Assembly: GCA_038245905.1 (NCBI GenBank)
Contig: JBBRRY010000004.1
Location: 64,001 to 128,000, forward strand
DNA: 64,000 nt
Direction: 5' to 3'
Origin: Thermoanaerobaculia bacterium
GTDB taxonomy: Bacteria; Acidobacteriota; Thermoanaerobaculia; UBA5066
Position numbers and translations under genes: made by a program. A model generated the notes under the pieces. That model ran no database searches and was not told the DNA's origin. It saw only the letters and a list, made by a program, of their open reading frames with translations. Of this stretch, positions 11,530-52,103 are shown in pieces. Numbering within the stretch: position 1 is the stretch's first letter; every line of letters starts with the position of its first letter.

Positions 11530-13754
11530 GCGGAAGCGGTCCGGATGGCCGGACGTCTCTTCTCGAGCACGAGGTGTACGCGCTCCTCGCGGGCGCGGGA
11601 TTCGACGTTCCGCGGCATGTCTTCTGGGAAGGAGCGCCGGAAGAGATTTCGGAGGAGATAAAAGATTTCTTAGAAGGGTTGGGAGCGGAGGAGGTCGTAC
11701 TCAAGATCGCCTCGCCCGATCTCGCCCACAAGTCGGACGTCGGAGGGCTTTCATTTTCTAAGAACATGCCCCTTTCCGTCGCCGTTGCTGCGAGGAGGAT
11801 GTGGGACGACGTCGGCCGCCGCGCGCCTGGCGCGCAGCGAACCGGGATCCTCGTCGTCGAGAAGCTCGTGCCGGCGACCGGCGCGCCGGCCGCCGAGGCG
11901 CTTCTCTCGTACCGGAACGACCCGGCATTCGGGCCGGTGCTCGTCTTCGGCCTCGGAGGACTTCTCACTGAGTGGTACGGCGAGATGGCGCCGGGCAATA
12001 CGACTGTGATTCTGAGACCCGGAGAGGTGAAGCGGGGCCTCCAGGCCGCCGCGCAGGAGCAGGCGGCGCTTAGGATTTTCTTTGAAGGTAGTAGAGCCCA
12101 CGCGCAGGCGCCCCTCGTGTTGGAGACGGTTGCCGGTCTGCTCGAAAACCTTTCTAAGAATCTTTCTCTTTCTTTCTCCCCCTCGAACTCTCTCGGCAAT
12201 CTGACTCTCGAAGAGCTGGAGGTGAATCCTCTGCTCCTCTGCGAAGGCGGCCGGTGGGTGGCCGCCGACGGCAAGGCGCGCTTCTCAACCCGTCGCTTCG
12301 TCGAGTCATCGCGGCCTCTCGAGAAGATCGAGAAGCTCCTCGCCCCGAAGAGCGCGGTCGTGTTCGGAGCCTCCGCGAACGACATGAACCCGGGGCGCAT
12401 CATTCTGCGAAACCTGAAGGCGTCCGAGACGATCGCTTACGGCGGCCTCCGCACCGTGCATCCGCGTGCCGAGACGATCGAGGGCGTGCCGTGCCTCCGG
12501 AAGGCCTCGGACCTCGAGGGCCCGGTCGACCTCGCGGTCGTCGCGATCCCGGCCGCCGGCGCACGCGACGCCGTCCGGGATCTCTGTGCGGGGGACCTCG
12601 CGCGCGCGATCATCCTGATCCCGGGCGGGTTCTCGGAAACAGGGGACCGCGTCCTCGAGGACGAGATGAAGCTGGCCCTCGCGGAATCGCGGAAACTGCC
12701 TTCCCGAGGCCCCGTTCTCGTGGGTGGAAACTGCCTCGGGGTCGTCTCGAAACACGCCTACAACACCTTCTTCCTCCCGCAGTACAAGCTCCCGTTCCAC
12801 GATGCGCCGGGGGACCGCCTTGTCGCCGTGAGCCAGAGCGGCGCGTACCTCGTGTCTCTCACGAGCAATCTCGACGGTATCGTGTTCCCGCGCGCGTCGA
12901 TTTCCTACGGCAACCAGATCGACCTAACGGCGGCCGACTTTCTCGAGTACTTCGAGATGGACCCATCCGTCCGGGTCTTCGCCTTCTACGTCGAGGGCTT
13001 CCTGCCGCTCGACGGCGCGCGCTTCGCGGCCATCGCGCGGCGGCTCACGGCCGCGGGCCGGCACGTGCTCGTCTACAAGGCGGGCCGCACGCCTCTCGGC
13101 GCGCGGGCGGCCGAGAGCCACACGGCGTCCCTCGCCGGCGACTGGGAGGTCGCCCGGGCGCTGCTCGAGGGCGCGGGTGCGGTCGTGGCGGTCACGCTCG
13201 ACATGTTCGAGGACAACACGAAGATCTTCACGATGCTCGCGGACCGGCTTCCGTCGGGGCGGCGGCTCGCGGTCCTCTCGAACGCCGGCTTCGAATGCGG
13301 GGCCGTGCTCGACCGCCTGTACGCGCTCACGCCCGCGGCGCTCTCCCCCGGGACGAAAGCGCGCCTCGAGGCCTGCCTCCCCGCGATCGCGCACGCGGAC
13401 AACCCCGTCGACGCGACGCCAATGGCCGACACGGCCGCGTTCGTCGCCGCGGCCGAGGCGCTGCTCGAGGACCCCGGAGTAGACGCGCTGATCGTCTCGC
13501 CGATTCCGGTTACTCCGGCGCTCGACGACCTCGCGCCCGATCTCTCGGGTTCGCACGGGGAGAACATCTACTCTCCGGGCTCGCTGGCGCAGGAGCTTCT
13601 GCGTCTCTTCCGCGCGACGGCCAAGCCGGTCGTCGTGAACGTGGATTCCGGCCGCCTCTACGATGACTTCGTCGGCGTGCTGCAACGCGGCGGGATCCCC
13701 GTCTACCGGAAGATCGACCGTGCTTCGCGCGCGCTCTCGGCGCTCTGCTCCTGA
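11526..13754 (+). CDS. ADP-forming acyl-CoA (acetate-CoA) ligase, single chain, ATP-grasp domain first
   Basis: VLKIASPDLAHKSDVGG, DPAFGPVLVFGLGG, EVNPL; then AVVFGAS, GGNCLG, SQSGA, SHTASLAG, NPVD. Confidence 0.9.
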   Translation: MSGSGPDGRTSLLEHEVYALLAGAGFDVPRHVFWEGAPEEISEEIKDFLEGLGAEEVVLKIASPDLAHKSDVGGLSFSKNMPLSVAVAARRMWDDVGRRAPGAQRTGILVVEKLVPATGAPAAEALLSYRNDPAFGPVLVFGLGGLLTEWYGEMAPGNTTVILRPGEVKRGLQAAAQEQAALRIFFEGSRAHAQAPLVLETVAGLLENLSKNLSLSFSPSNSLGNLTLEELEVNPLLLCEGGRWVAADGKARFSTRRFVESSRPLEKIEKLLAPKSAVVFGASANDMNPGRIILRNLKASETIAYGGLRTVHPRAETIEGVPCLRKASDLEGPVDLAVVAIPAAGARDAVRDLCAGDLARAIILIPGGFSETGDRVLEDEMKLALAESRKLPSRGPVLVGGNCLGVVSKHAYNTFFLPQYKLPFHDAPGDRLVAVSQSGAYLVSLTSNLDGIVFPRASISYGNQIDLTAADFLEYFEMDPSVRVFAFYVEGFLPLDGARFAAIARRLTAAGRHVLVYKAGRTPLGARAAESHTASLAGDWEVARALLEGAGAVVAVTLDMFEDNTKIFTMLADRLPSGRRLAVLSNAGFECGAVLDRLYALTPAALSPGTKARLEACLPAIAHADNPVDATPMADTAAFVAAAEALLEDPGVDALIVSPIPVTPALDDLAPDLSGSHGENIYSPGSLAQELLRLFRATAKPVVVNVDSGRLYDDFVGVLQRGGIPVYRKIDRASRALSALCS

Positions 13755-13763
13755 GCGCGCGCT

Positions 13764-13987
13764 TCAGGAGTTGTTCGGGTTGTCCGAGGTCCTGAGGTAG
13801 TAGTAGAGGCGCTTTCCGGGATCCTGGGGAAAGACGTTCACGCGCGACACGCGGTACGTGGTCTCCCCCTCGCCCTCGAAGTTGAAGCGCGTGTCGACTT
13901 CGGCGTTCCCCTCGGAGAGGAGAACGTTTCCCCAGCGTTCCGCGGTCTTCCCGTAGCGGCTCCTCGGATCGAAGGAGACGACGTCCG

Positions 13988-13991
<4 letters not shown>
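13764..13991 (-). CDS. small hypothetical protein (75 aa) coupled to pyrG
   Basis: GTG overlaps the pyrG stop (GTGA); codon usage typical of the genome; fills the intergenic gap. Confidence 0.6.
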
Positions 13992-15679
<1,688 letters not shown>

Positions 15680-15718
15680 GCTACACCTCCGTCGCGGCTG
15701 AAAGGGTTGTGGTTCGGC

Positions 15719-16525
15719 TCACGTAAGGTTGCTTTTCTTAGAAGGTGAAGAGAGCAGGGCGGCGGCGCTCTCTTCCTTTCTAAGCAAATTTTCAATTCTT
15801 TCGGCGTCCTCGATCGTATCCACGCCGATCGAATCCGACACCGCGTCCAGAACCGCCATCGCCATCCCGGCCGCGAGCGCGCGGAGCTGCTCGAGGCCCT
15901 CCGCCCGTTCGAGGGGATGCGGCGGGAGACTCGTCCACCTTCTCAAGGCTTCTTTCCGATAGCCGTAAAGCCCGAGGTGCTTGAGTGTCGCGAGGCCCGG
16001 CTCGGCCCGCCGGCGATAGGGGAGAGGCGACCTCGAGAAGTACAGGGCGCGCCCGTCGTCTCCGCGCACGACCTTGACGTTGTTGGGGTTCGCGATCTCG
16101 TTCGGGTCACGGATGGGCAGCGCGACAGTCGCGAGCGGAAAGTCGGGATGGTCGAGGAGGAATCCCGCCACCCGGTCGATGTTCTCGGGATCCATCATCG
16201 GCTCGTCGCCCTGCACGTTCAGGACGACGGTCACGTCGAGGTCCTTTACGGCGGCGAAGACCCGGTCGGTTCCCGAAGGCAGGGCGGGATCGGTCATCAC
16301 GGCCCTTCCGCCCGCGGACTCGACGACCCGGGCGATCCGCTCGTCGTCCGTCGCGACGAGAACGAGCGAGACGCGCTTCGCCTTAAGGGCCCTCTCGAGG
16401 ACTCTCACGACCATCGGAATCCCGGCGATCGGATGGAGAGGTTTTCCTGGAAAGCGCTCCGCCCCGTAGCGGGAGGGGATGACGGCGACCGAGGAGAGGG
16501 GAGTGTTGGTCGCCAGCCGGTGCAC
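15719..16525 (-). CDS. kdsB: 3-deoxy-manno-octulosonate cytidylyltransferase (CMP-KDO synthetase)
   Basis: IPSRYGAERFPGKPL, SGTDR, NVQGDEP, ALYFSRS, LEQLRAL. Start uncertain: GTG 16525 or ATG 16540. Confidence 0.95.
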   Translation of the reverse strand: MHRLATNTPLSSVAVIPSRYGAERFPGKPLHPIAGIPMVVRVLERALKAKRVSLVLVATDDERIARVVESAGGRAVMTDPALPSGTDRVFAAVKDLDVTVVLNVQGDEPMMDPENIDRVAGFLLDHPDFPLATVALPIRDPNEIANPNNVKVVRGDDGRALYFSRSPLPYRRRAEPGLATLKHLGLYGYRKEALRRWTSLPPHPLERAEGLEQLRALAAGMAMAVLDAVSDSIGVDTIEDAERIENLLRKEESAAALLSSPSKKSNLT

Positions 16526-16587
16526 GTTCGATAATAACATCGGCGCCCGTCGGCGAGTCAACGACCGCCGGTTCGCGCCCCGGTGTC

Positions 16588-16635
16588 CCCCAAAAGGTCG
16601 TCGTCACCGGCCCGGACCCGCGGGTCGATGACGAC
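16588..16635 (-). terminator. possible intrinsic terminator after the TPR gene
   Basis: Minus-strand stem GTCGTCATCG...CGGTGACGAC followed by GACCTTTT. Confidence 0.4.
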
Positions 16636-16673
16636 TTCAAGAGGATGGGGAGAGAGGGATTCGGGGGAGCCCG

Positions 16674-17108
16674 CTATCCGGCCACGGGTTGGGCGCGGCT
16701 TTGCGTGTCTTCGCTGGATTCGTCTTCGTCCACGAGGCCCGGGAGGGAAAGCGCGGTTGTTTCGAGCGCGCCCTCCAGCTCGCGGATGCCCTCGCGGGCC
16801 GCGACGCAGTAGGAGTTGGACTCGTCGTACCCGGAGGCGGCGACGACCTTCTCGTACGTGAGGAGGGCCTTCGTCGGTTCCACGAGCGCGAAGTGATACG
16901 TGTGCGCCACCGTCATGCGGGCCTGCAGGTCGTAGGGGTTGAGGCGCAGGATCTTCGCGAGAAACACGAGCGCGTCGTTGTAGCGCTCCTCTTCGAGCGC
17001 GACTTCGGCGCGGTGGCGGTAGAGCGCGACCTCTTCCTCGAGAGTGAAGTCCTCACGCGACGTGGCGCTGAAGGGCGACCGAAAGGACCGGAAAAGCTTT
17101 TCGATCAT
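16674..17108 (-). CDS. TPR-containing protein
   Basis: RBS AGGAG before ATG 17108; helical TPR pattern AEVALEEERYNDALVFLAKILRLNPYD. Confidence 0.75.
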   Translation of the reverse strand: MIEKLFRSFRSPFSATSREDFTLEEEVALYRHRAEVALEEERYNDALVFLAKILRLNPYDLQARMTVAHTYHFALVEPTKALLTYEKVVAASGYDESNSYCVAAREGIRELEGALETTALSLPGLVDEDESSEDTQSRAQPVAG

Positions 17109-17351
17109 TCGCTCTCCTGACCGTTCCCGAAAGTTGTGGGGGCCGATCCGTGACCCACGATATGTTGGGGAGAGCTTAAGACTGCGGAGCGCTAAAATCA
17201 AGAGAGATTCCAGAAAAAAGAAGGCTGAAAGGCGAATAACCCTTACTTCATTCGGTCATTGCTTCTACAACTTGACCAACAGCTGGTTTCGTTAGGCAGA
17301 ACCTTCCCGCAGCCTAATTACATTCAAAGTCACTAAATTATTTATTATTAA

Positions 17352-18425
17352 TTACTTACGACGATTTGCGGCGTACTCGGCGGCCAGTAGGAAGCCTTCT
17401 CGGGACGCTGTCTCGGGGAAGCGCGAGGCGATTTCGCGGGCTCGCTCGGCGTGCGTCTCGACCATTTCGCGGGCGCGCTCGAGGGCGGAGAGGCGGTGGA
17501 CGATCTCGAGGATCTGCTCTGGCCTCACGGAGTCGAATCCCTCCTCGGCAACGACCGCCTCCACGAGCTTGCGCTCGGCGCGCGTGGCGTGCGGCAGACA
17601 GAGGATGAGAGGCAGCGTGAGCTTTCCCTCCTTGAGATCCGAGAGGACCGGCTTGCCGAGGTCGACTTCCTTCGCCGTGTAGTCGAGGACGTCGTCCTGG
17701 AGCTGGAAGGCGATCCCGAGGGACATTCCGTACTCCCAGAGCCGGGCGCCCCAGGTCTCGGCCGTCTCGTCGTACGCTTCCGACACGAGGAACGACGGGA
17801 TCTTGCACGCGCCCGCGAACAGAAGGGCTGTCTTGCGGCGGACGATGTCGAGGTAGCCCTCGAGCGTGAGGTCGAGCAGTCCACGCCTCTCGGCACCGAT
17901 GATCTCGCCTTCGGTCATGCGGAGCGTCACATCCGAAAGGAGGCGTAGGACGCGCAGATCGCCCTCTTCGAGGGCGATCTCCATCGATTTCATGTAAAGA
18001 AAATCGCCGAAGAGAACGGTCAGCTCGTTGCCCCAGCGGCGATTCACGCTTGGCCGGCCACGGCGCAGCTCGGCGTCGTCGATGATGTCGTCGTGGACGA
18101 GCGTCGCCGTGTGGATGAACTCGATCATCGCGGCGTAGTTCACGTCGCGCTCGCCGTCGTAGCCGAGGAGATGCGACCCCAGGAGGAGGAGCGCGGGCCG
18201 GATTCTCTTGCCCCCGCCCTCGACGAGATAGTCGCCGATGAGCGAGATCGTCGGAATCCCGGAGCGCGTCCGCTCCTGGAGGCGCGTCTCGACGAGCCGC
18301 AGCTTGCCTTCGATCGGCGCGAGAGCCGAAAGCAGACGCCGCCCGTTCTCCCGCTCTTCGGCGGGAAGGGTGGCGACGAGCAGGCGGTCTTTCAGTGAGG
18401 TCTGGAACATTTCGACGGGCTGCAT
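17352..18425 (-). CDS. polyprenyl diphosphate synthase (IspB/HepT-like)
   Basis: GGKRIRP, LVHDDIID..LRRG, FQLQDD, GKLTLP. Confidence 0.95.
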   Translation of the reverse strand: MQPVEMFQTSLKDRLLVATLPAEERENGRRLLSALAPIEGKLRLVETRLQERTRSGIPTISLIGDYLVEGGGKRIRPALLLLGSHLLGYDGERDVNYAAMIEFIHTATLVHDDIIDDAELRRGRPSVNRRWGNELTVLFGDFLYMKSMEIALEEGDLRVLRLLSDVTLRMTEGEIIGAERRGLLDLTLEGYLDIVRRKTALLFAGACKIPSFLVSEAYDETAETWGARLWEYGMSLGIAFQLQDDVLDYTAKEVDLGKPVLSDLKEGKLTLPLILCLPHATRAERKLVEAVVAEEGFDSVRPEQILEIVHRLSALERAREMVETHAERAREIASRFPETASREGFLLAAEYAANRRK

Positions 18426-18476
18426 CTTACAGCCCCCTCCGACCCGGATTACGCCCGTATGGGTGGGCAGGATGCT

Positions 18477-18968
18477 CTAGCCCCGGAAGTTCGTGAACTG
18501 GAGGGGGATGCCGAAGTCGGCGCCCCGAAGAAGAGCGATGACGGCCTGTAGATCGTCCCTCTTCTTGCCCGAGACCCGCAGCTGCTCGCCCTGGATCGCG
18601 ACCTGCACCTTCAGCTTGCTGTCCTTGATCGCCTTGACGATCTCCCGGGCCTTCTCGGACTCGATGCCCTGGCGGATCGTGACCACCTGGCGCACGGTAC
18701 CTTTCGTCGCGGGCTCGATCGTGCCGTAGTCGAGGGACTTCAGGGAGACGCCGCGCTTCACGAGCTTGGTCTGGAGAATGTCCGTCACGGCCTTCAGGCC
18801 GAATTCGTCGTTTGCCGTGAGAGTGAGCTCCTTGTCCTTGTGCTCGATCCCGGCGGCGCTGCTCTTCAGGTCGTAGCGCTGCGCGGTTTCCTTCTGAGCC
18901 TGCGCGACCGCGTTCCCGACTTCGGGAAGGTTGACCTCGGAAACAACGTCGAATGTGGGGTCTGCCAT
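18477..18968 (-). CDS. yajQ: YajQ family nucleotide/c-di-GMP-binding protein
   Basis: PTFDVVSEV...RYDLK...IQGEQLRVSGKKRDDLQ...LQFTNFR. Confidence 0.95.
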   Translation of the reverse strand: MADPTFDVVSEVNLPEVGNAVAQAQKETAQRYDLKSSAAGIEHKDKELTLTANDEFGLKAVTDILQTKLVKRGVSLKSLDYGTIEPATKGTVRQVVTIRQGIESEKAREIVKAIKDSKLKVQVAIQGEQLRVSGKKRDDLQAVIALLRGADFGIPLQFTNFRG

Positions 18969-18972
18969 GGCT

Positions 18973-19650: not shown

Positions 19651-19675
19651 CTTCTAAGAAGCTCTTCTCTTTCTT

Positions 19676-21815: not shown

Positions 21816-21828
21816 GGTTTCTCCTCTT

Positions 21829-24807
21829 CTAGAAGATCTTCAGGATGTTCAGCGAAAGGACGACGCCCGTCTGCCCGCGGTTGCGGCCGGAGACGGGCGT
21901 TCCGGCATCGAGCCGGATCAGCGTCGCCCACGGCCCGGCGAACTCGCCCGAGATTCCCGCGCCGCTGAAGTAGGCCCAGTCGAGGCCCGCGGCCCGGTCC
22001 CTCACGCGCGCATCCTCGTAGATCGCCTCGAGGCGGAAGGCGCTCCCGATGACATAACCGTACGCGACCTTCGACGTGACCGCTTCCTCGGCACGCAGGG
22101 CACCCGACCGGAAGCCGCGCAGCGACGTTCCGCCGAAGAAGCCGAAGGTGTACTTCGAGAAGCGATCCGTGTTGTCGGAGCCGACGTACCCGAGCGACGC
22201 GCGCACGCGCTGGAAGCGCGGCAGGTGGAAGTCTTTCTGAATCTCGGCGCCCCAGGTCGTGAAGACGTCCTTGCCCGGGTCGTAGTCCGGGTTACCCGCG
22301 AAGCCCCACGGATCCCACTGCGACCTCTTGTTCCACGCCCACCGGCCCGTAACCGCCCACCCGCGCCAGTCCCAGGCGAGCTGGCCCTCGAGGCGTGTGA
22401 GCCAGTGGTCCGATGGAATCGCGAACGCCGATGATGTTTCGACGTCGTCGACCGCGAAGTCCCGGTGCGACTCGGTGACCGTCCCCGTGAGCTTGATGTG
22501 GCGCGCGATCGGGACGCCCGCCTTGAACGCGGCCGCGAATGACCGGCTCTTCACCCGCTGCGCCTTGTCTTCCTCGCCGGAGACGAAGAGCGCGTCCGTG
22601 CCCCGAAGCGCGATGCCGAAGACGTCGACGCCGACGTCGACTGGCGAGCCGAAGAGCCTCGGCTGGCTCCACGAGGCCGCGAGCAGGACGCCGCCGAAGA
22701 GGACCTGGAACTGGTCATGGCGTTTGCTCGCGTCGAGGTCGATCCAGTAGACGCCGAGGAGGGGGAGCGGATAGTCGTATGCGCCATCGTAGAAAAGGCC
22801 GCCGAGCCCGAAGAGCTTGCCGTGTTTCGCGTCCTCCGTGACGCGGCGGCCGCCGTCCTTCGTCTTCTCGAGGTAACGAACACCCTTCTCGGTCTCACGC
22901 ACCATCGTGTCCTTCGACGCGAAAGTCTCTTCGCGCGCCGCGCGGAAGGCGGGATCGTCGAGCCGGATGTCGGTGAGCACGCTTTCGCGCTCGATCACGG
23001 TCGTGCGCGAAAACGTTTTGAGGATCCACTGGCCCGTCGTGCGCGTCGGGAGGCGCAGCGGCGGCCCGCCGTCGGGTGCGGGCACATCCGTGAAGTCGGC
23101 CGTCTCGTCCACGGCCTGAATCTCGGCCGTGAGGTTCAGCTGCCGCGTCCGGACGCGGACGGCCGCGAACCCGTCTCGCGCGATCCACACGCGACCCGCG
23201 TACACGGGCTTGTCCGTCACGGCGACGCGCGGCTCGAAGTCGAGCGCCCAGCAGGGAATGCCCCGCACGGTCTCTTCGCCGACGAGCGCGTAGCGGTATG
23301 TGTCGTCGAGCGTGAGGGCGAGCGGCATGTCCGAGACCTTCTCGGGCTGCAGGAGCGGGAGCTCGGGGAGCTTTTTTCCCTTCCAGCGGACGCCGTTGAA
23401 GTACGCGTCGTGCCACGCCCAGTCGAAGCCCGAGCCCCTCTCGTAGAAGAACGGCCCGGCGAGCGTGAGGTCGATCGTGTTGCCGAGGTTCGCGAAGCGA
23501 AAGCGCATCGAGAGCGAGTTCGTCGCCGAGAGCGTCTTCCAGCGCGCATCGCGGGCCGCCCGCCACGCCTGGTGCTGCGCGAGAATCTCCTCCGCCGTGA
23601 TCCCGCGCGCGGCGGCGACCCCGACCGCGGCCTTCGGGGCCTCGGCCGGGGCTTTCTCGCGCGCCGTGAGGCGCACGGCGAGGGGACCATTCGCGAGCGA
23701 GAGGGTGAGGCGTACGGGGACCGCGCCTGCAGGGATCTCGAGCTTCCTCGAGGCCCCCGTCGCGAGCTCGAAAATCTCCGCCAAGCCGTACGGCGTCGCA
23801 TCCAGGGTGACCGTCACGGGCCCCGCCGGAGCGGGCGCGCCGCCCTTCGTGCCGGGAACGAGGACGACACCGCCCAGGTCGGCGCCCGAGACGACGCGGA
23901 ATGCGTCGCGCGGCGTTCCGTCGGACGCCGCGACGGACACGGCGCGGGTGTCGGCGCCGAAGTCGCCCGCGACCATGCGCGCGAAGCGCTCGAGCGTCGC
24001 GTCTTCGGCGGCCGACCACGCGGGTGTCGCGACGACGAACGGAAGGTTCTCGGACGCGAACCGCGCGGAAGCAGCGATGAGCGCGCCGGGCGTGCGGACG
24101 GAGGCACCGAGATCGACGAGCCCCGGCTTGCCGAATGCGACGGCGTCGATCGCTTTTCGGACCTCAGACGCATCAACCTGTGCGATTTCGGTCACGCCGA
24201 CCATGTCGAGATAGGCCGTGTTTTCTTCTGAAAGGAGGAGACGGTCGGCGGGTGCGATGAGCGGGCCCGAAGCGTCGGGTGCGGCCGCGAACGCAATCAG
24301 GGCGTGGGGAGCTGCGGCGCGCGCGCCCGCGGCCACCTTTCTAAGAAAATACGCCCGTGCCTTGGGGTCGCCGGAAACGGGCGTCGCGAAGTCGATGGAT
24401 ACGAGATCCGCCGTCCTTGCCTCTCTCAGAATCTCTCCGATCCCCGGCCAGAGGTCGTCCACGTTTGCCGCTTCGGCGGCTCGTACATCGGCCGGCACGG
24501 CCACATTGGGCAGCGCGAGCGCGAGCCCCCAGCGCCAGCCGGCGGTGTGGGCGTGCTCCGCGAGCTCGCGGACGCCGGCGATCGCCGCCGGCCTGTCCAC
24601 GCCCCGCGCGTCGGGGTCGAGTCGCAGCAAGAGGCCCGGAGCGTTCGGCGAATGGGCGGCGATCGGCAGGCCCGAGATGCGGGCGATCCTCGGGTCGCCG
24701 GGCGAGACCGCGAGCCACGGCGCCGCGTATGGGCGGGGCGTCACCCCCGCCGCGGCGTGAGAGAGGAGCGCCCCGAGGAGAGCGGCAAGAGCCCGGTGCT
24801 GCGTCAC
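21829..24807 (-). CDS. large exported protein with a LolA-like middle region and a predicted C-terminal outer-membrane beta-barrel
   Basis: Signal peptide; YALVGEETVRGIPCWALDFEP...GRVWIARD; alternating aromatic beta-strands; ends in ...LSLNILKIF. Confidence 0.75.
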   Translation of the reverse strand: MTQHRALAALLGALLSHAAAGVTPRPYAAPWLAVSPGDPRIARISGLPIAAHSPNAPGLLLRLDPDARGVDRPAAIAGVRELAEHAHTAGWRWGLALALPNVAVPADVRAAEAANVDDLWPGIGEILREARTADLVSIDFATPVSGDPKARAYFLRKVAAGARAAAPHALIAFAAAPDASGPLIAPADRLLLSEENTAYLDMVGVTEIAQVDASEVRKAIDAVAFGKPGLVDLGASVRTPGALIAASARFASENLPFVVATPAWSAAEDATLERFARMVAGDFGADTRAVSVAASDGTPRDAFRVVSGADLGGVVLVPGTKGGAPAPAGPVTVTLDATPYGLAEIFELATGASRKLEIPAGAVPVRLTLSLANGPLAVRLTAREKAPAEAPKAAVGVAAARGITAEEILAQHQAWRAARDARWKTLSATNSLSMRFRFANLGNTIDLTLAGPFFYERGSGFDWAWHDAYFNGVRWKGKKLPELPLLQPEKVSDMPLALTLDDTYRYALVGEETVRGIPCWALDFEPRVAVTDKPVYAGRVWIARDGFAAVRVRTRQLNLTAEIQAVDETADFTDVPAPDGGPPLRLPTRTTGQWILKTFSRTTVIERESVLTDIRLDDPAFRAAREETFASKDTMVRETEKGVRYLEKTKDGGRRVTEDAKHGKLFGLGGLFYDGAYDYPLPLLGVYWIDLDASKRHDQFQVLFGGVLLAASWSQPRLFGSPVDVGVDVFGIALRGTDALFVSGEEDKAQRVKSRSFAAAFKAGVPIARHIKLTGTVTESHRDFAVDDVETSSAFAIPSDHWLTRLEGQLAWDWRGWAVTGRWAWNKRSQWDPWGFAGNPDYDPGKDVFTTWGAEIQKDFHLPRFQRVRASLGYVGSDNTDRFSKYTFGFFGGTSLRGFRSGALRAEEAVTSKVAYGYVIGSAFRLEAIYEDARVRDRAAGLDWAYFSGAGISGEFAGPWATLIRLDAGTPVSGRNRGQTGVVLSLNILKIF

Positions 24808-25893
24808 TTACTTCCGGAAGGCCTTCGACGGAGCCCTGGGCTCCGGTGCGGGGAGCGCCACGGGAGCCGGTCCGGCTGGCACGACGACGTCGCCCGTCGG
24901 AAGACCGAGGTTCGCCCGGATCTTCTTCTCGATCTCGGCGGCGATGTCGGGGTTGTCGCGGAAGAACTGCTTGGAGTTTTCGCGGCCCTGCCCAAGGCGG
25001 ATATCGCCGTAGCTGAACCAGGCGCCGGACTTCTCGACGATCTTCATCTCGATCCCGATGTCGATGAGCTCGCCCGTCTTCGAGATGCCCTCGCCGTACG
25101 CGATGTCGAACTCGGCGAACCGGAAGGGGGGAGCGACCTTGTTCTTGACGATCTTGACCTTCGTGCGGCTTCCGACGACGACCTCGCCGTCCTTGATGGC
25201 ATTGATGCGCCGGATGTCGATACGGACCGACGAATAGAACTTCAAGGCCCGGCCGCCCGTCGTCGTCTCTGGGTTCCCGAACATGACGCCGATCTTTTCG
25301 CGGATCTGGTTGATGAAGATGAGGGTCGTGTTCGATTTCGAGACGACCGCCGTGAGTTTGCGCATGGCCTGCGACATGAGGCGCGCCTGCAGGCCCACCA
25401 CGGCGTCGCCCATCTCGCCTTCGAGCTCGGCCTTCGGAACGAGCGCCGCGACGGAGTCGATGACGACGACGTCGATCGCGGCCGACCGCACGAGCGCCTC
25501 GGCGATCTCGAGCGCCTGTTCGCCCGAGTCGGGCTGGGACACCATGAGGTTGTCGACGTCGACGCCGAGCTTCTTGGCGTAGTCGGGGTCCATCGCGTGC
25601 TCGGCGTCGATGAAGGCGGCGAGCCCGCCACGCTTCTGCGCCTCGGCGATGACGTGGAGGGTCAGGGTCGTCTTGCCCGAAGACTCCGGCCCGAAGACTT
25701 CGATGACACGGCCGCGCGGGATGCCGCCGATTCCCAAGGCGGCGTCCACGCCGATCGAGCCCGTCGAGATGCACTGGATGACGGTGTGTGGCTTGTCACC
25801 GAGACGGACGAGAGCGCCTTTGCCGAACTGCCGGTCGATCTGCTGGAGCGCTTGCTCGAGTGCTTTCTGCTTTTCCTTGTTCACTTCGACCAT
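24808..25893 (-). CDS. recA: recombinase RecA
   Basis: [42 protein letters not shown]. Confidence 0.99.
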
Positions 25894-25925: not shown

Positions 25926-26115
25926 GGAAGAGAAAGAGGAGGATTTTGATTTGGATTCGGATTTCGGATTCGGATTTCTTAGAAGGGTGAATGAGGCTGA
26001 GGCGCTCGAAGGACGTCGAGGCGCCACACTCTGCACCGGCGCCACTCGACCTTCTAAGAAAATCTTCTCTGGGGGCGAAACGGCCTACGATGGCGTCGCC
26101 GAGCGGAAGGAACGT

Positions 26116-28783: not shown

Positions 28784-29881
28784 ATGTCGAGCACCGCCGG
28801 AGTCTGCGCGCTCATCCTCGCCGGCGGGAGCGGCACAAGGCTGTGGCCCCGCTCGACGGACGAAAGGCCGAAGCCTTTCCTTGCGCTGTCGGGCGGAGAG
28901 TCGCTCCTTCGGGAGACCTGGCGGCGCGCCGCCGGCCTCGCCGGGAAGGACAACGTCTTCGTCTCGGGCCGCGCGTCGCACGAGGCGCTCCTCGTCGCAG
29001 AGCTCCCGGAAGTCCCGCGCGAGCGCCTTGTCCTCGAGCCCACGCGCCGCAACACTGCCCCCGCGATCGCCCTCTCGGCGCTGGCGGCCTCAGAGGACGC
29101 GCCCGACGTCGTTCTCGCCGTGCTGCCGTCTGACCAGGCGGTGCGCGATGAACCGGCGTTCCTCTCCGCTCTCCGCGCGGCCGTCTCGGCGGCGCGGACG
29201 CGCGAGGCGTTCGTCACACTCGGGATTCCTCCGACGCGGCCCGAGGCGGGCTTCGGATATATGGAAGTTGAAGAGCACAAGGAAGGGGAAAGCGATTTTT
29301 CTTTGAATGGGAAGAGTAGGAGCGAGGCCTCGCTCCTGCGGGTGGTGCGGTTCGTCGAGAAGCCCAGCCAGACTCGCGCGGAGGAGTTTCTTGCGTCGGG
29401 GCGCTTCCTCTGGAACGCCGGCATCTTCGTATTCCGGACGTCCTGGCTCTTCGAAGAGATGGAGAGGGTCTGTCCGGATATCCTGAAGGTCGCCCGCCGC
29501 GCGCATGCAGCGAGAAAAGCGGCGGATTCTTCCTCCTTCAAAGAAATCTTCTCCTCCTCCCCGTCCGTCTCCATCGATGTCGCCGTGATGGAGAAAGCAC
29601 GAACCGTGCTCACAGTTCCGTGTGCCTGCGGCTGGAGCGACCTGGGTTCGTGGGAAGCCGTGTTCGAGTTCCGGGGCGGATCGTCCGCGCGGAACGTTCT
29701 CGAGGGCCCGGCCGATTCGGTGGACGGCTCGGGCAACCTCGTGCTGGCGGAGGCGAGGCCGGTGCGCGTCGTCGGCCTCTCGGACATCGTGGTCGTGGAA
29801 TCTCCAGGCGGCCTCCTCGTCATGCGCCGGGGCGCGTCGGACGCGCTTCGCCGGAGCGTGGAAAAAGGGCTCAGGGGATGA
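28784..29881 (+). CDS. mannose-1-phosphate guanylyltransferase
   Basis: ILAGGSGTRLWPRS, EPTRRNTAPA, FVEKP, WNAGIF, SIDVAVMEK, WSDLGSW. Confidence 0.92.
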   Translation: MSSTAGVCALILAGGSGTRLWPRSTDERPKPFLALSGGESLLRETWRRAAGLAGKDNVFVSGRASHEALLVAELPEVPRERLVLEPTRRNTAPAIALSALAASEDAPDVVLAVLPSDQAVRDEPAFLSALRAAVSAARTREAFVTLGIPPTRPEAGFGYMEVEEHKEGESDFSLNGKSRSEASLLRVVRFVEKPSQTRAEEFLASGRFLWNAGIFVFRTSWLFEEMERVCPDILKVARRAHAARKAADSSSFKEIFSSSPSVSIDVAVMEKARTVLTVPCACGWSDLGSWEAVFEFRGGSSARNVLEGPADSVDGSGNLVLAEARPVRVVGLSDIVVVESPGGLLVMRRGASDALRRSVEKGLRG

Positions 29882-38376: not shown

Positions 38377-38381
38377 GCCCC

Positions 38382-41791: not shown

Positions 41792-41838
41792 CGGTGCGCG
41801 TGCGGACGGAGACGCGCGCCGGCTGACGGGGGACCGCA

Positions 41839-43380: not shown

Positions 43381-43481
43381 TCGCCCCGGCCGGGGCGCCC
43401 CGGCCGCCGGCCCCCGGGCCCGGGAGCCTGATCGGTTTGCACCATAGCCGCCGGACCCTTGGATACGGAGAATCCATCTCC

Positions 43482-46460: not shown

Positions 46461-46470
46461 GACAGGCCGG

Positions 46471-48426
46471 CTACTCCACCCGGCTGAGGTCTACGAGCCT
46501 CGAGTTCTTGCCCTGGAAGGCCATCCATTCCGGGTGGCGATCCAGGATCGGGCCGAGCCGACGCGAAAGAGCCGAGAGCTCCCACGGGAATCTGGTGTCG
46601 AGCAGGTAATCGAATCCGCGGGCTCGAAAAGCTCCGAGGATCTGTACTTCGGACGCGGCACTCGAGACTTCCTGCCGCCAGAGCCGATCCAGCGACAGGT
46701 CGTCCGTCGCGGCGGAGACGTCGTGTCCGAGCATGTAATAGATCTCGTTGTCGCCGGTCGTCACGATGCGCGCGGACCTCGGCACGTTCGTCGCGATCCA
46801 CAGCTTCGCGTCTCCAGCCGAGTGCTCCAGGAGCGCGCGCTGGAGGGGAAGATCCCGGGCCCGGTCGAGGACCGCTTCCGGTGCCAGCCGGGAGGTTGCG
46901 ACGACGGCGCCGAGGACGACGAGGCCGCTGGGCAGCAGGCGGAACGCCCGCACGCGTCTCGAGAGAAACCGCAATACGAGCAGCGAGAGGAGGGTCCCGG
47001 ACACGTTCAGAAGGACGAGGCCGGGACCCAGCAGGCGGAACTGCGTTCCTGGCCTCGCGACGACGAGGAAGCAGAGAAGGCTTCCGAGGGCGACAAAGAA
47101 CAGCAGGAAGCACCGCCGGCGAAACGCGAAGCTCCTTGCCGGAGCGAAGAGGCCGCGCACGAGAAAGAGGGGGATTGCGAGGGCGACGATGGCGAGCGTT
47201 CCTTCGTGCGCCAGACCCCCGAGTCGTTCCAGTCTCCAGGCGACGTGATCGTCTCGCAGCGACGGTGCCATCCCGTAGATGATTTCGCGCTGGCTGTTGC
47301 TCAGGGTGGTGAGAGGCGTGGCCCCGAGCGCGAGAGGATAGATAGCGCTTCCGGTGCCTCGGAGATTCCGGGCGAGAAGGGGAGTGGCGGCCAGCAGAAC
47401 TCCCAGAAGCACACTTGCCGCGGCCGACGGGACTCTCCTGGGGGCGTCGAGGAACTGATACACGAGCCAGCCGAGAAGCAGCGGCAGCAGGGTGAATGCG
47501 ACCGTGTACTTGGCAACGAACGCGGCGCCGAGGAAGACACCCGCCGCGACGTTCCTCCTCCACGAGCTTCGTACTCCCGACAGGAGGACGGCCCCGCACA
47601 GCAGCCATGCGGCCGCGCCGCAGTCGTTCTTCGCGAGAACGCCGTACCGCCATAGGGAAGAGGTCGCGAGGGCGGCAAACCCGCCGATGAGCGAAACCGC
47701 GGGAGGGAACCGAAGCCGTTGCAAGAGAGCGATGACCGCGAGCCCGATGGCGACCCAACCCAGTGTCAGGTGCGTCCACTGCGCGAAGATCTGGATCGCC
47801 GGGAGGCCGGCCTCGCCTTTCCCGAGGAAGAACTGTGCCGGCCAGAGATACAGGTACTCCCAGAGAGAAGCCTGGAAGTTCAGCGGATGCTGCGGGTCGA
47901 ATGCGATCGTTCCGCTGCGCAGCCAGAGGACCGGCGCGACGAGGTGATAGTAAAGCGGGTCGCCATGCCGTGCGAGATGCGTGGATTGAACGAAGCGAAG
48001 GCCGCAGTACGAGGCCAGGAGAGCGGTCAAGACGGCATGTCGTCGCGCGCGCGGCACGGGCGGAGCGCTCGGGAGCATGGCGAAAGAAAGGACACCGCCC
48101 AGGAGAAACGCGTTCGATGAGATGGGACCGTGAATACCGGCGACCAAGGTTAGGTAGGCCCACCACGCCGCGAAGAGGCTCCCAAGGCCCAGCGTCACGG
48201 CCCAGGCCTCCGCCCCGCGAAGGGCGTCCGGCGACGAGAGTCCGATCAGCCGGCTCGCCGCCCGTCCCCAGCCGGCTATCGCAATAACCCAGAACAGAAA
48301 AATGAGGAACAGGCCGAGCAGGCTCCTGAGACCGAAATCCTCCGTGGTCGAGGTGGGCACGTATCCGCCCACGGCGGCGAACCCCACCGCCGAAAAAGCC
48401 AGGGCTACCAAGATGCGGTTCTGCAA
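46471..48426 (-). CDS. polytopic membrane protein, probable GT-C-fold glycosyltransferase
   Basis: Many TM segments, DPLYYHL and KND motifs; follows a WcaJ-like gene. Start uncertain. Confidence 0.65.
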   Translation of the reverse strand: MQNRILVALAFSAVGFAAVGGYVPTSTTEDFGLRSLLGLFLIFLFWVIAIAGWGRAASRLIGLSSPDALRGAEAWAVTLGLGSLFAAWWAYLTLVAGIHGPISSNAFLLGGVLSFAMLPSAPPVPRARRHAVLTALLASYCGLRFVQSTHLARHGDPLYYHLVAPVLWLRSGTIAFDPQHPLNFQASLWEYLYLWPAQFFLGKGEAGLPAIQIFAQWTHLTLGWVAIGLAVIALLQRLRFPPAVSLIGGFAALATSSLWRYGVLAKNDCGAAAWLLCGAVLLSGVRSSWRRNVAAGVFLGAAFVAKYTVAFTLLPLLLGWLVYQFLDAPRRVPSAAASVLLGVLLAATPLLARNLRGTGSAIYPLALGATPLTTLSNSQREIIYGMAPSLRDDHVAWRLERLGGLAHEGTLAIVALAIPLFLVRGLFAPARSFAFRRRCFLLFFVALGSLLCFLVVARPGTQFRLLGPGLVLLNVSGTLLSLLVLRFLSRRVRAFRLLPSGLVVLGAVVATSRLAPEAVLDRARDLPLQRALLEHSAGDAKLWIATNVPRSARIVTTGDNEIYYMLGHDVSAATDDLSLDRLWRQEVSSAASEVQILGAFRARGFDYLLDTRFPWELSALSRRLGPILDRHPEWMAFQGKNSRLVDLSRVE

Positions 48427-48478
48427 CGGTCGTTTGAGTTGCGCTCGGCTGAAGTATGCAGTTGCCGCCGGCGGCGGC

Positions 48479-49879
48479 TCAGTACGCGTTCTTGTGGGTA
48501 AAGCCCCACTTGACCGTGAGCCACAGGATCTTCACGTCGAGGCCGAACGACCAGTTCTCGATGTAGTAGAGGTCGTACTCGATGCGCTTCGAGAGGCTCG
48601 TGTTGCCGCGCCAGCCGTGCACCTGCGCCCAGCCCGTGATGCCGGCGCGGACCCGGTGGCGGAGCATGTACTGGGGGAACTTGTCCCGGAACGTGCTCAC
48701 GAACTCCGGGCGCTCCGGACGGGGACCCACGAGAGACATCTCGCCCGTGAAGACGTTCACGAGCTGCGGCAGCTCGTCGAGCGAGGTCTTGCGCAGGAAT
48801 GCGCCGACATGCGTGCGGCGCGCGTCGTTCTCTTCGGCCCAGCGCGCGCCGTCGTTTTCGGCGTCGACGCGCATCGAGCGGAACTTCAACATCCGGAAGA
48901 GCCGCCCGTCGAGGCCCATGCGCTCCTGCGCGTAGAAGATCGGGCCGCGGTCTTCGAGCCAGATCGCGAGCGCGATGACCGGGAAGAGAACGGCGATCGC
49001 GACGAGGCCGAGGGCCGAGAGTGCGACGTCCATCGTGCGCTTCACGAGGGAATTCCAGCCCTCGAGCGGCATCTGGGTCAGGTTGATGACGGGCAGGCCG
49101 TCGAAGTCCTCGACTCCGGCCTTGAACGTCACGTACTGGAAAAGGTCGGGCACGACCTTCAGGTCGACCATCTCGTTGCCCACGTCCTTGAGGATCGTGA
49201 GCATCGTGCGGTGGGCCTCGACGGGCAGAGCGAGAAAGACCGTATCGACATCGTGGGCCCGGATCAGCGCCGTGACCTCCGCGGTGACGCCGAGGACCGC
49301 GAGTCCCCGATAGCCGTCCGCGCGCTTCGCGGGGTCGTCGTCCGCGAAGCCGACGGGTTTGAGGCCGGTCGCGGGATGGTCGAGCAGCTTGTCGGCGAGC
49401 GCGCGCCCGGTGTGTCCCGCGCCCACGATGAGCGTCCGGCGCACGCCGGCGCCCGTCGACCACATGTTCTCGAGGTATTTGCGGATCCCGAAGCGCACGA
49501 GCGAGACGAAGAGGACATCCAGGACGAGAAAAAGGACGAGCATCTGGCGGCTCGTGTACGTGAAGCCTCGCCAGAAGGAAAGAAGGCCGACGAGCAGGAT
49601 CGTCCCGAGGGACGCCGCGACGATGACGGCGAGCACTTCGTCGATGGTCGAGCGGTCGCGGCGGATCTGATACAGCCGGTGGAAGTAGAAAACGACTGGC
49701 CAGATCGCGATGAGGATCGGGATGAACGCGACGTAATTCTCGAAAGGCTGCGCGCCTTTCGGTGTCGGCCAGACCGACTCGAAGCGGATGAGCCACGCCG
49801 CACCCAGCGCGAGCACGGTCGCGAGGACGTCGGCGGCCACGAAGAGGGCTTGAAGACGGCGGGTCTGGCGGCGAATCAC
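48479..49879 (-). CDS. undecaprenyl-phosphate sugar phosphotransferase (WcaJ-like)
   Basis: KFRSM, SLDELPQL, MSLVGPRPE, GITGWAQV, DLYYIENWS. Confidence 0.95.
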   Translation of the reverse strand: MIRRQTRRLQALFVAADVLATVLALGAAWLIRFESVWPTPKGAQPFENYVAFIPILIAIWPVVFYFHRLYQIRRDRSTIDEVLAVIVAASLGTILLVGLLSFWRGFTYTSRQMLVLFLVLDVLFVSLVRFGIRKYLENMWSTGAGVRRTLIVGAGHTGRALADKLLDHPATGLKPVGFADDDPAKRADGYRGLAVLGVTAEVTALIRAHDVDTVFLALPVEAHRTMLTILKDVGNEMVDLKVVPDLFQYVTFKAGVEDFDGLPVINLTQMPLEGWNSLVKRTMDVALSALGLVAIAVLFPVIALAIWLEDRGPIFYAQERMGLDGRLFRMLKFRSMRVDAENDGARWAEENDARRTHVGAFLRKTSLDELPQLVNVFTGEMSLVGPRPERPEFVSTFRDKFPQYMLRHRVRAGITGWAQVHGWRGNTSLSKRIEYDLYYIENWSFGLDVKILWLTVKWGFTHKNAY

Positions 49880-51012
49880 ACGGGCTCCGGAGCGTCGATT
49901 CTAGCGTTCTCGGGCTCGTTTCCGGCCCGGCTCCTCGCCCTCCCGAGGGCGGCGAGGAAACGGCTTCGAAAAACGTCCCGCGAGAAACGGGACGCGTTCC
50001 GGGTCAGGGCGACGGGATCGAGCGTCAGGCCGCGCAGCCGGTCGAGCGCCGTCAGGAGGCCCGTCGCGCCCGGCGAGTCGTACAGGACACCTGTCTCTCC
50101 GTCCCGGACGGTCTCCTTCGCCCCGCCGCGGCCGAGCGCCACGACCGGCGCGCCGCACGCCTGCGCCTCCAGCGGCACGATGCCGAAATCTTCCTCTCCG
50201 GGCATCAGGACGGCCTCGGCGGTCCGGTAGCACGCGCGCAGCATGTCGTCCTCTGGAGTGTCGAGGAATCGGACCGTCTCACCGGCCCGGGCGGCGAGGC
50301 GCGCGCGCTCGGGCCCGAACCCCGCGATCGTGAGGGGCAGCCGGCGGGTGTTCGCGGCGTCGATCGCGTCCTCGAGGCGCTTGTATGGCGCGAGGGCCGA
50401 CACGACGAGGAGACCGTTCCGGAGCGAACCGGGCGGCGGCGGCGTGTAGAAACCGGTGTCGACGGGCGGGAAGACCACCTCCGCCTCGCGCCCCCAGAGG
50501 CGGGCGATGCGTCCCCTCACGTTCTCCGAGTTCGCGAGAAAGGCGTCGACGCGAGGCACGGCCGCGCGATCCCATGCCCGGAGCGGTCCGCGAACGAGCC
50601 GCGCGGCCGCGGTCACGAGGGCCGGCCGGCCCCGGAAGTAGTCGTCGAACTGATCGTGGAGATAGCGGACCGGCGTGTGGCAGTAGCAGAGATGAAACGC
50701 GCCCGGAGCCTTCTTCGCGTTCTTGGCGACGCAGTGGGAGGTCGAGATTACGAGCTCGAAGTCCGACAGGTCCCATGTCTCGGCGGCGACGAAGAAGAGG
50801 GGGAGCAGCTTGCGGTAGTTGGCGCGCGGCGAGACGAGCTTCTGGAGGAACGTAGTCCGGATTTCGGCGGCCTCGATCTCCGGGGCCTGCGAACCCTTGA
50901 AGTGAAAAAGCGTGAAGACGGGCGCGCCGGGGAACATCCGCACCAGCTCGAGCAGTACCTTCTCGCCGCCGCGGGTGCCCGTCAGCCAGTCGTGGACGAG
51001 GGCGACCCTCAC
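49876..51012 (-). CDS. GT4 glycosyltransferase
   Basis: VALVHDWLTGTRGGEKVL, EDFGIVPLEAQACG; GTG 51012 overlaps the upstream stop. Confidence 0.93.
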   Translation of the reverse strand: MRVALVHDWLTGTRGGEKVLLELVRMFPGAPVFTLFHFKGSQAPEIEAAEIRTTFLQKLVSPRANYRKLLPLFFVAAETWDLSDFELVISTSHCVAKNAKKAPGAFHLCYCHTPVRYLHDQFDDYFRGRPALVTAAARLVRGPLRAWDRAAVPRVDAFLANSENVRGRIARLWGREAEVVFPPVDTGFYTPPPPGSLRNGLLVVSALAPYKRLEDAIDAANTRRLPLTIAGFGPERARLAARAGETVRFLDTPEDDMLRACYRTAEAVLMPGEEDFGIVPLEAQACGAPVVALGRGGAKETVRDGETGVLYDSPGATGLLTALDRLRGLTLDPVALTRNASRFSRDVFRSRFLAALGRARSRAGNEPENARIDAPEPV

Positions 51013-52103
51013 GACGAAAGCCTCGGTTTTTCGGAGGAGAGATTTTCTTTGAATGGAAAGAGAACGCCGTCGTAGATACCTGCCGTTCGTTCTGCGACGC
51101 GGGCCCACGTGAATTGCGCTACCCGGTCCCTCCCCCTTTTTCTAAGCAAATCTCTCCTCTCTTCATCTCCGAGCAGAATCTCCAACGCTGCGGCCATCGA
51201 ACCGATGTCGTGCGGGTCGAAGAAAACCGCCGCGTCGCCCGCCGCCTCGCGGAGCGCCGGGAGGTCCGAGCATGCCACGGGCGTGCCGGCCGCCTGCGCT
51301 TCGAGGACGGGCAGGCCGAAGCCCTCGGCGAAGGAGGGTTGGACGAGAACGCGGGCGCCCGCGACGAGCGCCGGCACGTCCTCGTCGGGCACCCAGCCGA
51401 GAGCCTTCGCGCCCGCGGGCAGCGTCCGGCCGGGGCCAACACCCGCGAGGACGAGAGACAGCGAAGGCGTCGAAACGCGGAGACGCGCGAATGCGGCAAG
51501 CAGCCCGTCAAGGTTCTTGTGCGGCTTGTCGTTCCCGAGGAAGAGAAGATAGGACTCGGACGAAGATCCCCCCCCCCTCCCCCTTTCAAAGAAATCTTCT
51601 CTTACGCCGTAGGGAAGGACCACGACCTTGCCTTCCCGCTCGGGTCCGAAAGCAAGAATTTCCCTCTTCGTCTCCTCGGACCCCGCGATGACCGCCGCCG
51701 ACAGGCGGAGTGCGCGTCCCACCATCCAGCGCGCGTACGCCCGCTTCGCGAGCGCCCCGTGCTCGGGCCTCGTGAGGTGCATGAGGTCGTGGATGGTGAC
51801 GACCGTCGCCTTCGGCGGAAAGAACGGAACGACATAGTGCGGGGCATGGAAGAGATCAGGCTGAATCGCCGAGATCGCCCGCCTCACGGCGACCAGCTCC
51901 CCGAAGGAGTAATGGGGAGCGTCGCAGATCCTCGCGAGTACGCCCGTCGGAAGAAGAGCCTCCTCGCCGGGGAGCACGAGCGCATGAAGCTCGTAGCGGT
52001 CGAGCCCGGCGAGGCCGCCGAGGAGGCCGCGGATGTAAGTCCCGATCCCGAAGTCGCGCGCCTTGCGGGCGTCGACGAGGACCCGTTTCCTTCGTCCGGT
52101 CAA
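51009..52103 (-). CDS. GT4 glycosyltransferase
   Basis: DARKARDFGIGTY, VTIHDL, KPHKN, EGFGLPVLEAQAAG; TTG 52103 overlaps the upstream stop. Confidence 0.9.
   Translation of the reverse strand: MTGRRKRVLVDARKARDFGIGTYIRGLLGGLAGLDRYELHALVLPGEEALLPTGVLARICDAPHYSFGELVAVRRAISAIQPDLFHAPHYVVPFFPPKATVVTIHDLMHLTRPEHGALAKRAYARWMVGRALRLSAAVIAGSEETKREILAFGPEREGKVVVLPYGVREDFFERGRGGGSSSESYLLFLGNDKPHKNLDGLLAAFARLRVSTPSLSLVLAGVGPGRTLPAGAKALGWVPDEDVPALVAGARVLVQPSFAEGFGLPVLEAQAAGTPVACSDLPALREAAGDAAVFFDPHDIGSMAAALEILLGDEERRDLLRKRGRDRVAQFTWARVAERTAGIYDGVLFPFKENLSSEKPRLSS

Follow-up and report, generated by a model that had tools for sequence, protein, structure and literature searches.

A short directional motif that recurs as inverted pairs in the stretch of 64,000 nucleotides analysed here (the window) belongs to a genome-wide family, and our reading, to which we assign a probability of about 0.5, is that these pairs represent a clade-specific, directional double-stranded signal that is kept by selection, is concentrated towards the terminus and is likely bound by a putative chromosome-organizing protein. 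The core of the motif is TTC[T/A/G]AAG[A/C]A in the pyrimidine-rich strand, within a directional site of approximately 40–42 bp, and the string TTCWAAGVA occurs 16 times in the window (expected 0.48), a count that none of 100 shuffles reached. An earlier note on this DNA had listed six reverse cores, each followed by a forward partner, and all of them were found at the claimed positions and offsets (Table 1); VLKIASPDLAHKSDVGG is indeed encoded within pair 1, so that the enclosed DNA can be coding. The same note described the tails as pointing outward; pyrimidines in fact predominate in the motif strand on either flank of the core, in a short inner and a longer outer tract. The motif also resembles its own complement.

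Table 1. Paired and unpaired motif sites in the window
Site	Span	Strand	Reverse core	Forward core	Offset (bp)	Location and remarks
Pair 1			11667-11675	11756-11764	89	within ATP-grasp/CoA-binding acyl-CoA ligase gene (11526-13754, +); encloses VLKIASPDLAHKSDVGG coding DNA
Pair 2	12078..12160		12078	12152	74	same acyl-CoA ligase gene as pair 1 (11526-13754, +)
Pair 3	15735..15786		15735	15778	43	3' end of cytidylyltransferase gene (15719-16525, -)
Pair 4	25976..26060		25976	26052	76	intergenic, upstream of recA (24808-25893, -)
Pair 5	29299..29545		29299	29537	238	within nucleotidyltransferase/mannose-1-phosphate guanylyltransferase-like gene (28784-29881, +)
Pair 6	51045..51148		51045	51140	95	within predicted gene (51009-52103, -; gene call only) between two GT4 glycosyltransferase genes
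Pair 7	2567..2690		2567	2682		additional to the earlier six; reverse site (G-variant core) in ABC ATPase gene, forward site in GntR gene
Unpaired forward site	19652..19660	+				strong (37 bits); intergenic; best upstream reverse score 0.9
Unpaired forward site	51585..51593	+				strong (34 bits); coding
Forward site	24339..24347	+				weak (15 bits); possible degenerate partner at 24223 (8 bits)
Forward site	111..119	+				28.5 bits; window edge, partner side mostly beyond the window

At a PWM cut-off of 14 bits, approximately 715 sites were detected genome-wide, whereas a Markov null predicts 25, and 436 of the 715 form 218 pairs, approximately 39% of sites having no partner at 14 bits. Of 98 reverse-then-forward neighbours, 75 are no more than 300 bp apart, compared with 1/86 for forward-then-reverse and 3/84 for same-strand neighbours. 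As random placement gives a mean of only 2.6 such reverse-then-forward cases (maximum 9 in 1000), the orientation and spacing of neighbouring copies are not random across the genome, and back-to-back order is strongly preferred. The pairing proposed earlier therefore holds, but its suggested centre at 75–95 bp does not, the spacing ranging from 28 to 313 bp and falling mostly between 70 and 150 bp, with a median of approximately 116 bp. A fixed 75–95-bp wrap or a rigid loop is likewise unsupported, because no 10.5-bp periodicity was detected (Rayleigh 0.6, n=191) and the span of pair 1 varies among species, at 89, 95, 98, 101 or 102 bp. A helical phase at the best period of approximately 9 bp (Rayleigh 5.8 over approximately 60 periods tried) was unconvincing, and a tandem outward repeat of approximately 30 bp, hinted at by the PWM, all but disappeared when cores only were matched (three cases at 30 bp) and was discarded. 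Loci are not evenly spaced (CV 1.1).

Most of the sites (573/715) lie in CDS, and the 142 located between genes fall in 7% of the DNA, an approximately 3-fold enrichment; 160 of the 218 pairs are contained in a single gene. Both gene strands are used (295 versus 265), as are all six frames, the cores in CDS number 238 against 10–17 after synonymous resampling, and on contigs with clear GC skew we found no leading/lagging strand bias (215 versus 200). These data indicate a signal at the level of DNA and not of protein or RNA. A signal read in the transcript, whether as the long-range RNA stems considered in the earlier note or as pyrimidine tracts for Rho loading or pausing, is very unlikely: any reverse copy can pair with a forward copy (approximately -27 kcal/mol) and the motif strand is C/U-rich, but partners display no complementarity specific to each other (23.10 of 54 positions, compared with 23.12 after shuffling; 208 pairs, z=-0.1; duplex energies barely differ), the transcribed strand is not preferred and most coding sites are interior to the gene, far from its ends (458/560). 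No Rfam match was found in the window.

The view that the pairs are not MITE insertions was borne out by comparison with orthologues, which align without insertion at the arms and, where motif-free, carry ordinary GC-rich codons there; the sites are written into genes by substitution. Pair 1 is present in 23 of the 27 loci examined (its own included), with a spacing of 89–102 bp, and pair 2 in 25 of 27, with a spacing of 74–75 bp; in the spacer of pair 3 one close relative has 48 letters replacing 17. In outline, inverted doublets of variable spacing look like invertons, attC sites and REPINs, but we regard recombination or inversion sites, or selfish REP/REPIN-like doublets, as barely credible here. 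The 27 aligned orthologues are collinear across the enclosed segments, inversion would disrupt the genes that contain the pairs, and G021 and G006 contain only two PF00589 (tyrosine recombinase) genes each at E<=1e-20 despite having 265 and 330 sites respectively; there was also no inversion joint among 15 of the 96 joints listed, in contigs, which drop rare variants. The RAYT family PF01797 was found in 0/29 g1 genomes at the strict cut-off of E<=1e-15, several of them being without any candidate, and seven of the eight RAYT-positive genomes among the 63 of the family belong to motif-negative genera. Given that neither phasing, arm covariation, inversion, RAYT nor an extra tyrosine recombinase was found, hairpins, inversion sites, REPINs and rigid 75–95-bp wrapping are all unsupported.

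In one genus the sites are abundant; in a second genus of the same family the signal is weaker (very few sites in its 99% complete member G101), and the rest of the class is close to background. In congeners approximately 21% diverged the sites occupy the same positions, G011 retaining 70 of 81 in place and G020 51 of 55, compared with none of four in the outgroup G029, and core identity is 0.85–0.90 against a background of 0.78–0.79. A 400-kb sample of this outgroup gave two PWM hits at 16 bits or above and no obvious substitute motif. Such clade limitation, together with the substitution into genes in all frames and the enrichment between genes, would also fit a new uptake-sequence dialect, in which a competence receptor prefers the motif, biased uptake and recombination spread it into coding positions that tolerate it, and pairing reflects a two-site receptor. 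We consider this possible but doubtful. The gene comEC is present in 26/28 congeners plus G000, which also has pilin/T2SSE genes, but it is equally present in motif-negative genera (16/17 in g2) and, overall, in 57/63 family genomes, motif-negative ones included, so that its presence does not discriminate. According to PMC3630211, DUS occur within genes and can be arranged as inverted pairs, although the pairs are described there as intergenic terminator stem-loops, whereas those found here are mostly intragenic (160/218), lie 28–313 bp apart and do not covary in their arms. Furthermore, uptake bias would offer no obvious reason for a concentration of sites towards the terminus.

This concentration was observed in G011, G028, G180 and G000, in which site density is 2–3 times higher in the dif half of the chromosome than in the origin half and the bias is centred on dif; the contig order of the first three was inferred, and the tests are not independent, since the genomes are kin. 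The dif and origin halves hold 128 and 47 loci in G011 (p=7e-10), 104 and 54 in G028, and 41 and 18 in G180, from the second genus (p=0.004), and G000 has 2.86 versus 1.19 sites per 10 kb. The circular mean of the G011 loci is 2.02 Mb, with the dif-adjacent parB at 2.04 Mb, i.e. 20 kb from dif, and the bias is also seen over 40 G011 samples (rho -0.61) and in DNA common to G011 and G000 (75 sites in 270 kb versus 16 in 222 kb). The two halves differ little in GC content, site strength or spacing. Gene content may contribute to the bias, and an underpowered test on the family core gave four sites in 20 kb versus five in 47 kb. Sites occur 70 bp from dif, and three are present in 4/6 congeneric parB2 loci; sites also lie between dnaA and parS. 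The bias is only 2–3-fold, and roughly one-quarter to one-third of the loci fall in the origin half, unlike the confined matS. One exception is G020, in which the origin lies approximately 740 kb from dif with dense sites adjoining (29 sites in 775 kb); this genome looks rearranged, but the sites that were relocated show no decay. Certain restriction and repair enzymes require two inversely oriented sites at a flexible distance, and a directional, abundant, clade-limited mark at DNA level might similarly serve a nuclease, helicase or modification system needing two opposed sites, as a self-mark or as a Chi- or HIP1-like repair/processing signal. This is unlikely, as a self-mark would not be expected to thin out near the origin and, in contrast with Chi or KOPS, the sites show no replichore strand bias. 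In addition, the motif was matched exactly in 61 viral contigs, none of which exceeds 55% GC around the match, and hence there is no sign of phage mimicry, although viruses of this genus may be sparse in that set.

Paired protein sites are the best-supported of the options suggested earlier, in a form other than the rigid, fixed-distance one. In the mechanism that we propose, each approximately 40-bp site would position one protein unit with fixed polarity, and two back-to-back units, 40–300 bp apart, would co-operate by way of a contact that is flexible or slides; this would account for a minimum distance without helical phase and without complementary arms. The most likely role of this two-way station would be to stall, unload or exclude motors that track along DNA, namely SMC loop extruders, or to hold DNA of the terminus half in place during division, in the manner of matS/MatP and XDS/XerD in other bacteria. 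A more speculative and less probable reading is a bacterial counterpart of back-to-back insulators, in which hundreds of polar elements, evolved in place inside genes, would form paired two-way SMC barriers or unloading stations, would divide the terminus half into domains of approximately 3–15 kb and would be recognized by a putative new reader. A second ParAB system, located at dif, is also present in this lineage. Among the candidates tried, no reader protein was found: ParB2 has a nearly identical recognition helix in motif-positive and motif-negative genera (g1, g18, g2, g4 and g6), and both ParBs occur across the family and order; lexA promoters bear a different palindrome, common to motif-negative genera with the same LexA recognition helix; and MatP (PF06303) was detected in 0/29 genomes, with a positive E. 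coli control. Of 108 short genes in the neighbourhood of ori, dif, smc, xer and dense site clusters, 82 were scanned against Pfam and none emerged as a candidate, and literature searches found no paper on the motif.

To our knowledge, few bacterial chromosome-shaping signals have been described (parS, matS, KOPS, Chi, NBS/SBS and DUS), and none of them is long, polar and arranged in unphased back-to-back pairs. The present signal is so strong that it has overridden both codon and amino-acid choice in hundreds of housekeeping genes, its positions are held across the whole genus and its density follows the origin–terminus axis. The motif therefore offers a tangible bait with which a new DNA-binding system could be identified, and makes testable both the existence of orientation-specific boundary elements in bacteria and the rise of such sites by point mutation. 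KOPS, Chi and HIP1 are likewise abundant short chromosome motifs tolerated within genes, but the motif described here is much longer, is paired and lacks replichore polarity. The inverted doublets of REP/REPIN/BIME elements with RAYT also have spacers of tens to hundreds of bases, whereas our sites are mostly coding, made by substitution, with unrelated spacers and no RAYT found. DUS of the Neisseriaceae and USS of the Pasteurellaceae share clade limitation, hundreds of copies, intragenic location in several frames, AT-rich extensions and inverted pairs; here, however, the pairs have long spacers, lie mostly inside genes and are unlike terminator hairpins, with a terminus bias and a distribution that comEC does not track. 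Divergent CTCF pairs at TAD boundaries, TrmBL2 of Thermococcus and the inverted ORC sites of yeast origins are similar in having polar sites of fixed relative orientation at a flexible, unphased distance that act on a sliding motor, but these systems are eukaryotic or archaeal, no homologous reader is known here, and the enclosed DNA, at 69% GC, is not an unwinding element. CTCF and TrmBL2 are both treated as roadblocks in parts of PMC11840125, and passages in PMC11894783, PMC10945525 and PMC11840125 give precedent for terminus-specific sites that block SMC. Like matS/MatP of the gamma-proteobacterial Ter macrodomain and XDS/XerD of Bacillus subtilis (PMC10945525, PMC11894783 and PMC11840125), the sites are dispersed and, G020 excepted, denser towards dif, and an SMC-limiting role is plausible. 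Differences are also evident, in that MatP was not found, the approximately 700 sites (12–29 per 100 kb) compare with approximately three matS per 100 kb according to PMC10945525, and the sites form directional back-to-back pairs of approximately 40-bp units that occur in the origin half as well, with no dif-like XerD arm evident. By analogy, the best reading is that these sites may work like matS and XDS, without being members of either group.

Re-examination of the window recovered all six inverted pairs described in the earlier note, at the same positions and with equal offsets. The core TTCWAAGVA occurs there in 16 copies, compared with 0.48 expected by chance, and no words are more over-represented in the source genome (G000; 3.8 Mb, 68% GC) than nine-mers of the motif. 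The window corresponds to G000:C4:64001-128000; its RecA is most similar, among named records, to proteins of Acidobacteriota, several of them assigned to Thermoanaerobaculia, the probable class of the genome. A weight matrix of 42 positions and about 31 bits describes the site as a short pyrimidine tract followed by (C/A)C(C/T/A), TTC[T/A/G]AAG[A/C]A, A(T/A) and a longer pyrimidine tract; these unequal flanks make the site directional, though its core is nearly palindromic. At a threshold of at least 14 bits, G000 carries 715 sites compared with about 25 under an order-5 Markov null. A strict motif pattern is present at 55-330 copies in each of the 29 genomes of the genus, whereas 32 other genomes of the family and order hold 0-4 copies. 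When 301 genomes of the class were surveyed, G180 (26 versus 2), from a second genus, g18, was the one genome outside the first genus that clearly exceeded its control; the small genomes G075 and G079 gave less than twofold excess with high controls. A G-core variant was found in seven of eight g18 genomes versus none of 17 in g2. The near-complete g18 genomes G101 and G321 contain very few or no copies, whereas their congeners have dozens; this scarcity possibly reflects natural loss or an early stage, and makes both a useful contrast for tracing the protein that would recognize the sites. These data clearly show that the paired DNA signal is real, strongly non-random and clade-limited, and no published description of it was found in the literature searched, which covered few subscription journals.

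Features located in this analysis (pairs as reverse/forward site)
Feature	Location	Stretch
Pair 1	window:11667/11756	
Pair 2	window:12078/12152	
Pair 3	window:15735/15778	
Pair 4	window:25976/26052	
Pair 5	window:29299/29537	
Pair 6	window:51045/51140	
ATCCGA-type repeats	window:25945-25975	
Second parB, adjoining dif	G000:C1:216347-218200	L328
lexA promoters	G000:C5:70372-70440 (in G000)	L341-L390
EF-G/EF-Tu cluster	G000:C17:3000-28000	L122
dnaA/parB, G020	G020:C2, about 0.84 Mb	L135-L147
dif, G020	G020:C2, about 0.107 Mb	L135-L147
T/G-rich stretch	G011:C1:50001-70000	L111

The fixed polarity proposed from the window holds genome-wide. Among the 317 strict-core copies in G000, 75 of 98 reverse-then-forward neighbours lie at most 300 bp apart (null mean 2.6, maximum 9 in 1000), compared with one of 86 forward-then-reverse neighbours, the exception being the lexA promoter, where the site abuts a different palindrome. 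With the matrix, 218 pairs account for 436 of the 715 sites, and many seemingly single sites are accompanied by a weak partner where the polarity predicts one. Pair spacing ranges from 28 to 313 bp (median about 116) and is rarely below 65 bp, with no 10.5-bp phase among matrix pairs across G000; pair 1 spans 89, 95, 98, 101 or 102 bp according to species (27 of 30 loci, three partial loci being excluded), and the pair 3 spacer of a close relative is longer by 31 bp. Wrapping of a fixed length of DNA, one of the earlier proposals, is not supported by these distances, and a minimum distance without phasing would fit instead two separately bound units in flexible or sliding contact. Long-range RNA stems, also proposed for the inverted arms, did not withstand comparison of the partners, as in 208 of the 218 pairs these were no more alike than randomly drawn arms and duplex energies of real and shuffled arms differed by about 0.5 of 27 kcal/mol; each arm matches the family consensus rather than its own partner. 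Recombinational inversion also seems unlikely, tyrosine recombinases numbering as few as two in site-rich genomes.

By our own gene calls, 573 of the 715 sites fall in coding DNA, which makes up 93% of the G000 genome, so that intergenic DNA is about threefold enriched. Sites occur on either strand and in every frame, and 160 of the 218 pairs have both members inside one gene. Coding sequences contain 238 cores versus 10-17 in five synonymous resamplings, and these rely on uncommon codons, TTA (0.2% of Leu) among them. An acyl-CoA ligase gene alignment of motif-bearing and motif-free species revealed no insertion at the arms, where, for example, GGLSLSKKSS in the former stands against GGVAFAPRDP in the latter; the signal arose by substitution, paying in amino-acid changes. 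Of the G000 sites that fall within aligned blocks, 70 of 81 still reach 14 bits or more in congener G011, and for congener G020 the figure is 51 of 55; core conservation exceeds background, and the motif-poor outgroup G029 keeps none of four. Such alignments show the sites to be old and maintained.

Density also varies along the chromosome. In G000, the origin contig C3 (dnaA, parS, parB and skew switch) carries 0.47 sites per 10 kb and contig C1, bearing dif and a second parB, 3.0. G011 is assembled as two contigs, and the orientation chosen for them (2.38/2.37-Mb arms) is consistent with GC skew. Three disjoint patterns together matched 199 times in this genome, which reduced to 175 loci: the dif half has 128 and the origin half 47 (p=7e-10), with a circular mean of 2.02 Mb and the dif-adjacent parB at 2.04 Mb; forty 20-kb samples of G011 gave a rho of -0.61. 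The halves hold 104 versus 54 in congener G028 and 41 versus 18 in G180 (contig order inferred). DNA common to G011 and G000 contains 75 sites in 270 kb versus 16 in 222 kb (dif versus origin half), and the placeable G000 contigs (29 of 113) 2.86 versus 1.19 per 10 kb; the genomes in these tests are kin, and the family-core gene test is too small. GC (67.6 versus 68.1%), site score and spacing are similar in the two halves, sites show no strand bias by replichore, and the density forms what looks like a plateau reaching about 1.2 Mb to each side of dif, not a peak. G020 (3.9 Mb, mixed GC skew) departs from this bias, dense sites reaching an origin only about 740 kb from dif. This layout is a large inversion or a mis-assembly; G020 differs from G000 in the arrangement of its blocks, which implies a recent event, an assembly error, or a weaker influence of position than of ancestry. 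The EF-G/EF-Tu cluster lies in G011 about 660 kb from dif, in the terminus half and not near the origin. One very low-complexity G011 stretch (GC 58%, skew +0.24) is probably an assembly artefact.

The 29 genomes of the genus yielded no MatP and, at E<=1e-15, no RAYT-family protein. Nor did a candidate for the recognizing protein emerge when 82 genes close to ori, dif, smc, xer and the dense site clusters were scanned against Pfam. Nearly all of the 61 genomes surveyed from the family and order have two ParB genes, and in several congeners motif sites flank the dif-adjacent copy, near which no clear palindromic parS was found. This terminus ParB is not supported as the recognizing protein: it is spread throughout the family and order, and motif-negative genera have it with almost the same helix. 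LexA likewise lacks support, having an unchanged helix and its own separate palindrome. The latter, close to CCKAA-N5-TWHGG and usually twice in tandem, lies upstream of lexA in nearly every family genome inspected, including those of motif-negative genera, and is likely the LexA operator; G000 has few further exact intergenic copies, none evident before recA. Short tandem repeats sit immediately outside the reverse motif site upstream of recA.

Paired protein sites are the proposal that survives. The polarity of the sites, their conservation as DNA, the independence of the two arms and their indifference to transcription together argue for recognition of the double-stranded site by a protein. 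The dif-centred bias would fit chromosome organization better than DNA uptake, for which PMC3630211 provided the DUS comparison; comEC is present whether or not the motif is. Comparisons also covered Chi, KOPS, HIP1, REPINs, attC, divergent CTCF pairs and ORC, as well as XDS as reportedly characterized by Karaboja in 2021 (relayed by citing papers). For every one of the nearest known families open to testing, there is a defining test that the signal fails. We favour a pair acting as a two-way barrier or tether, whose two units would bind separately and be joined through flexible or sliding contact. The analogy is with matS/MatP and XDS/XerD, systems that exclude SMC complexes from the terminus (PMC10945525, PMC11894783 and PMC11840125), and with the roadblock proteins that stall loop extrusion (PMC11840125).
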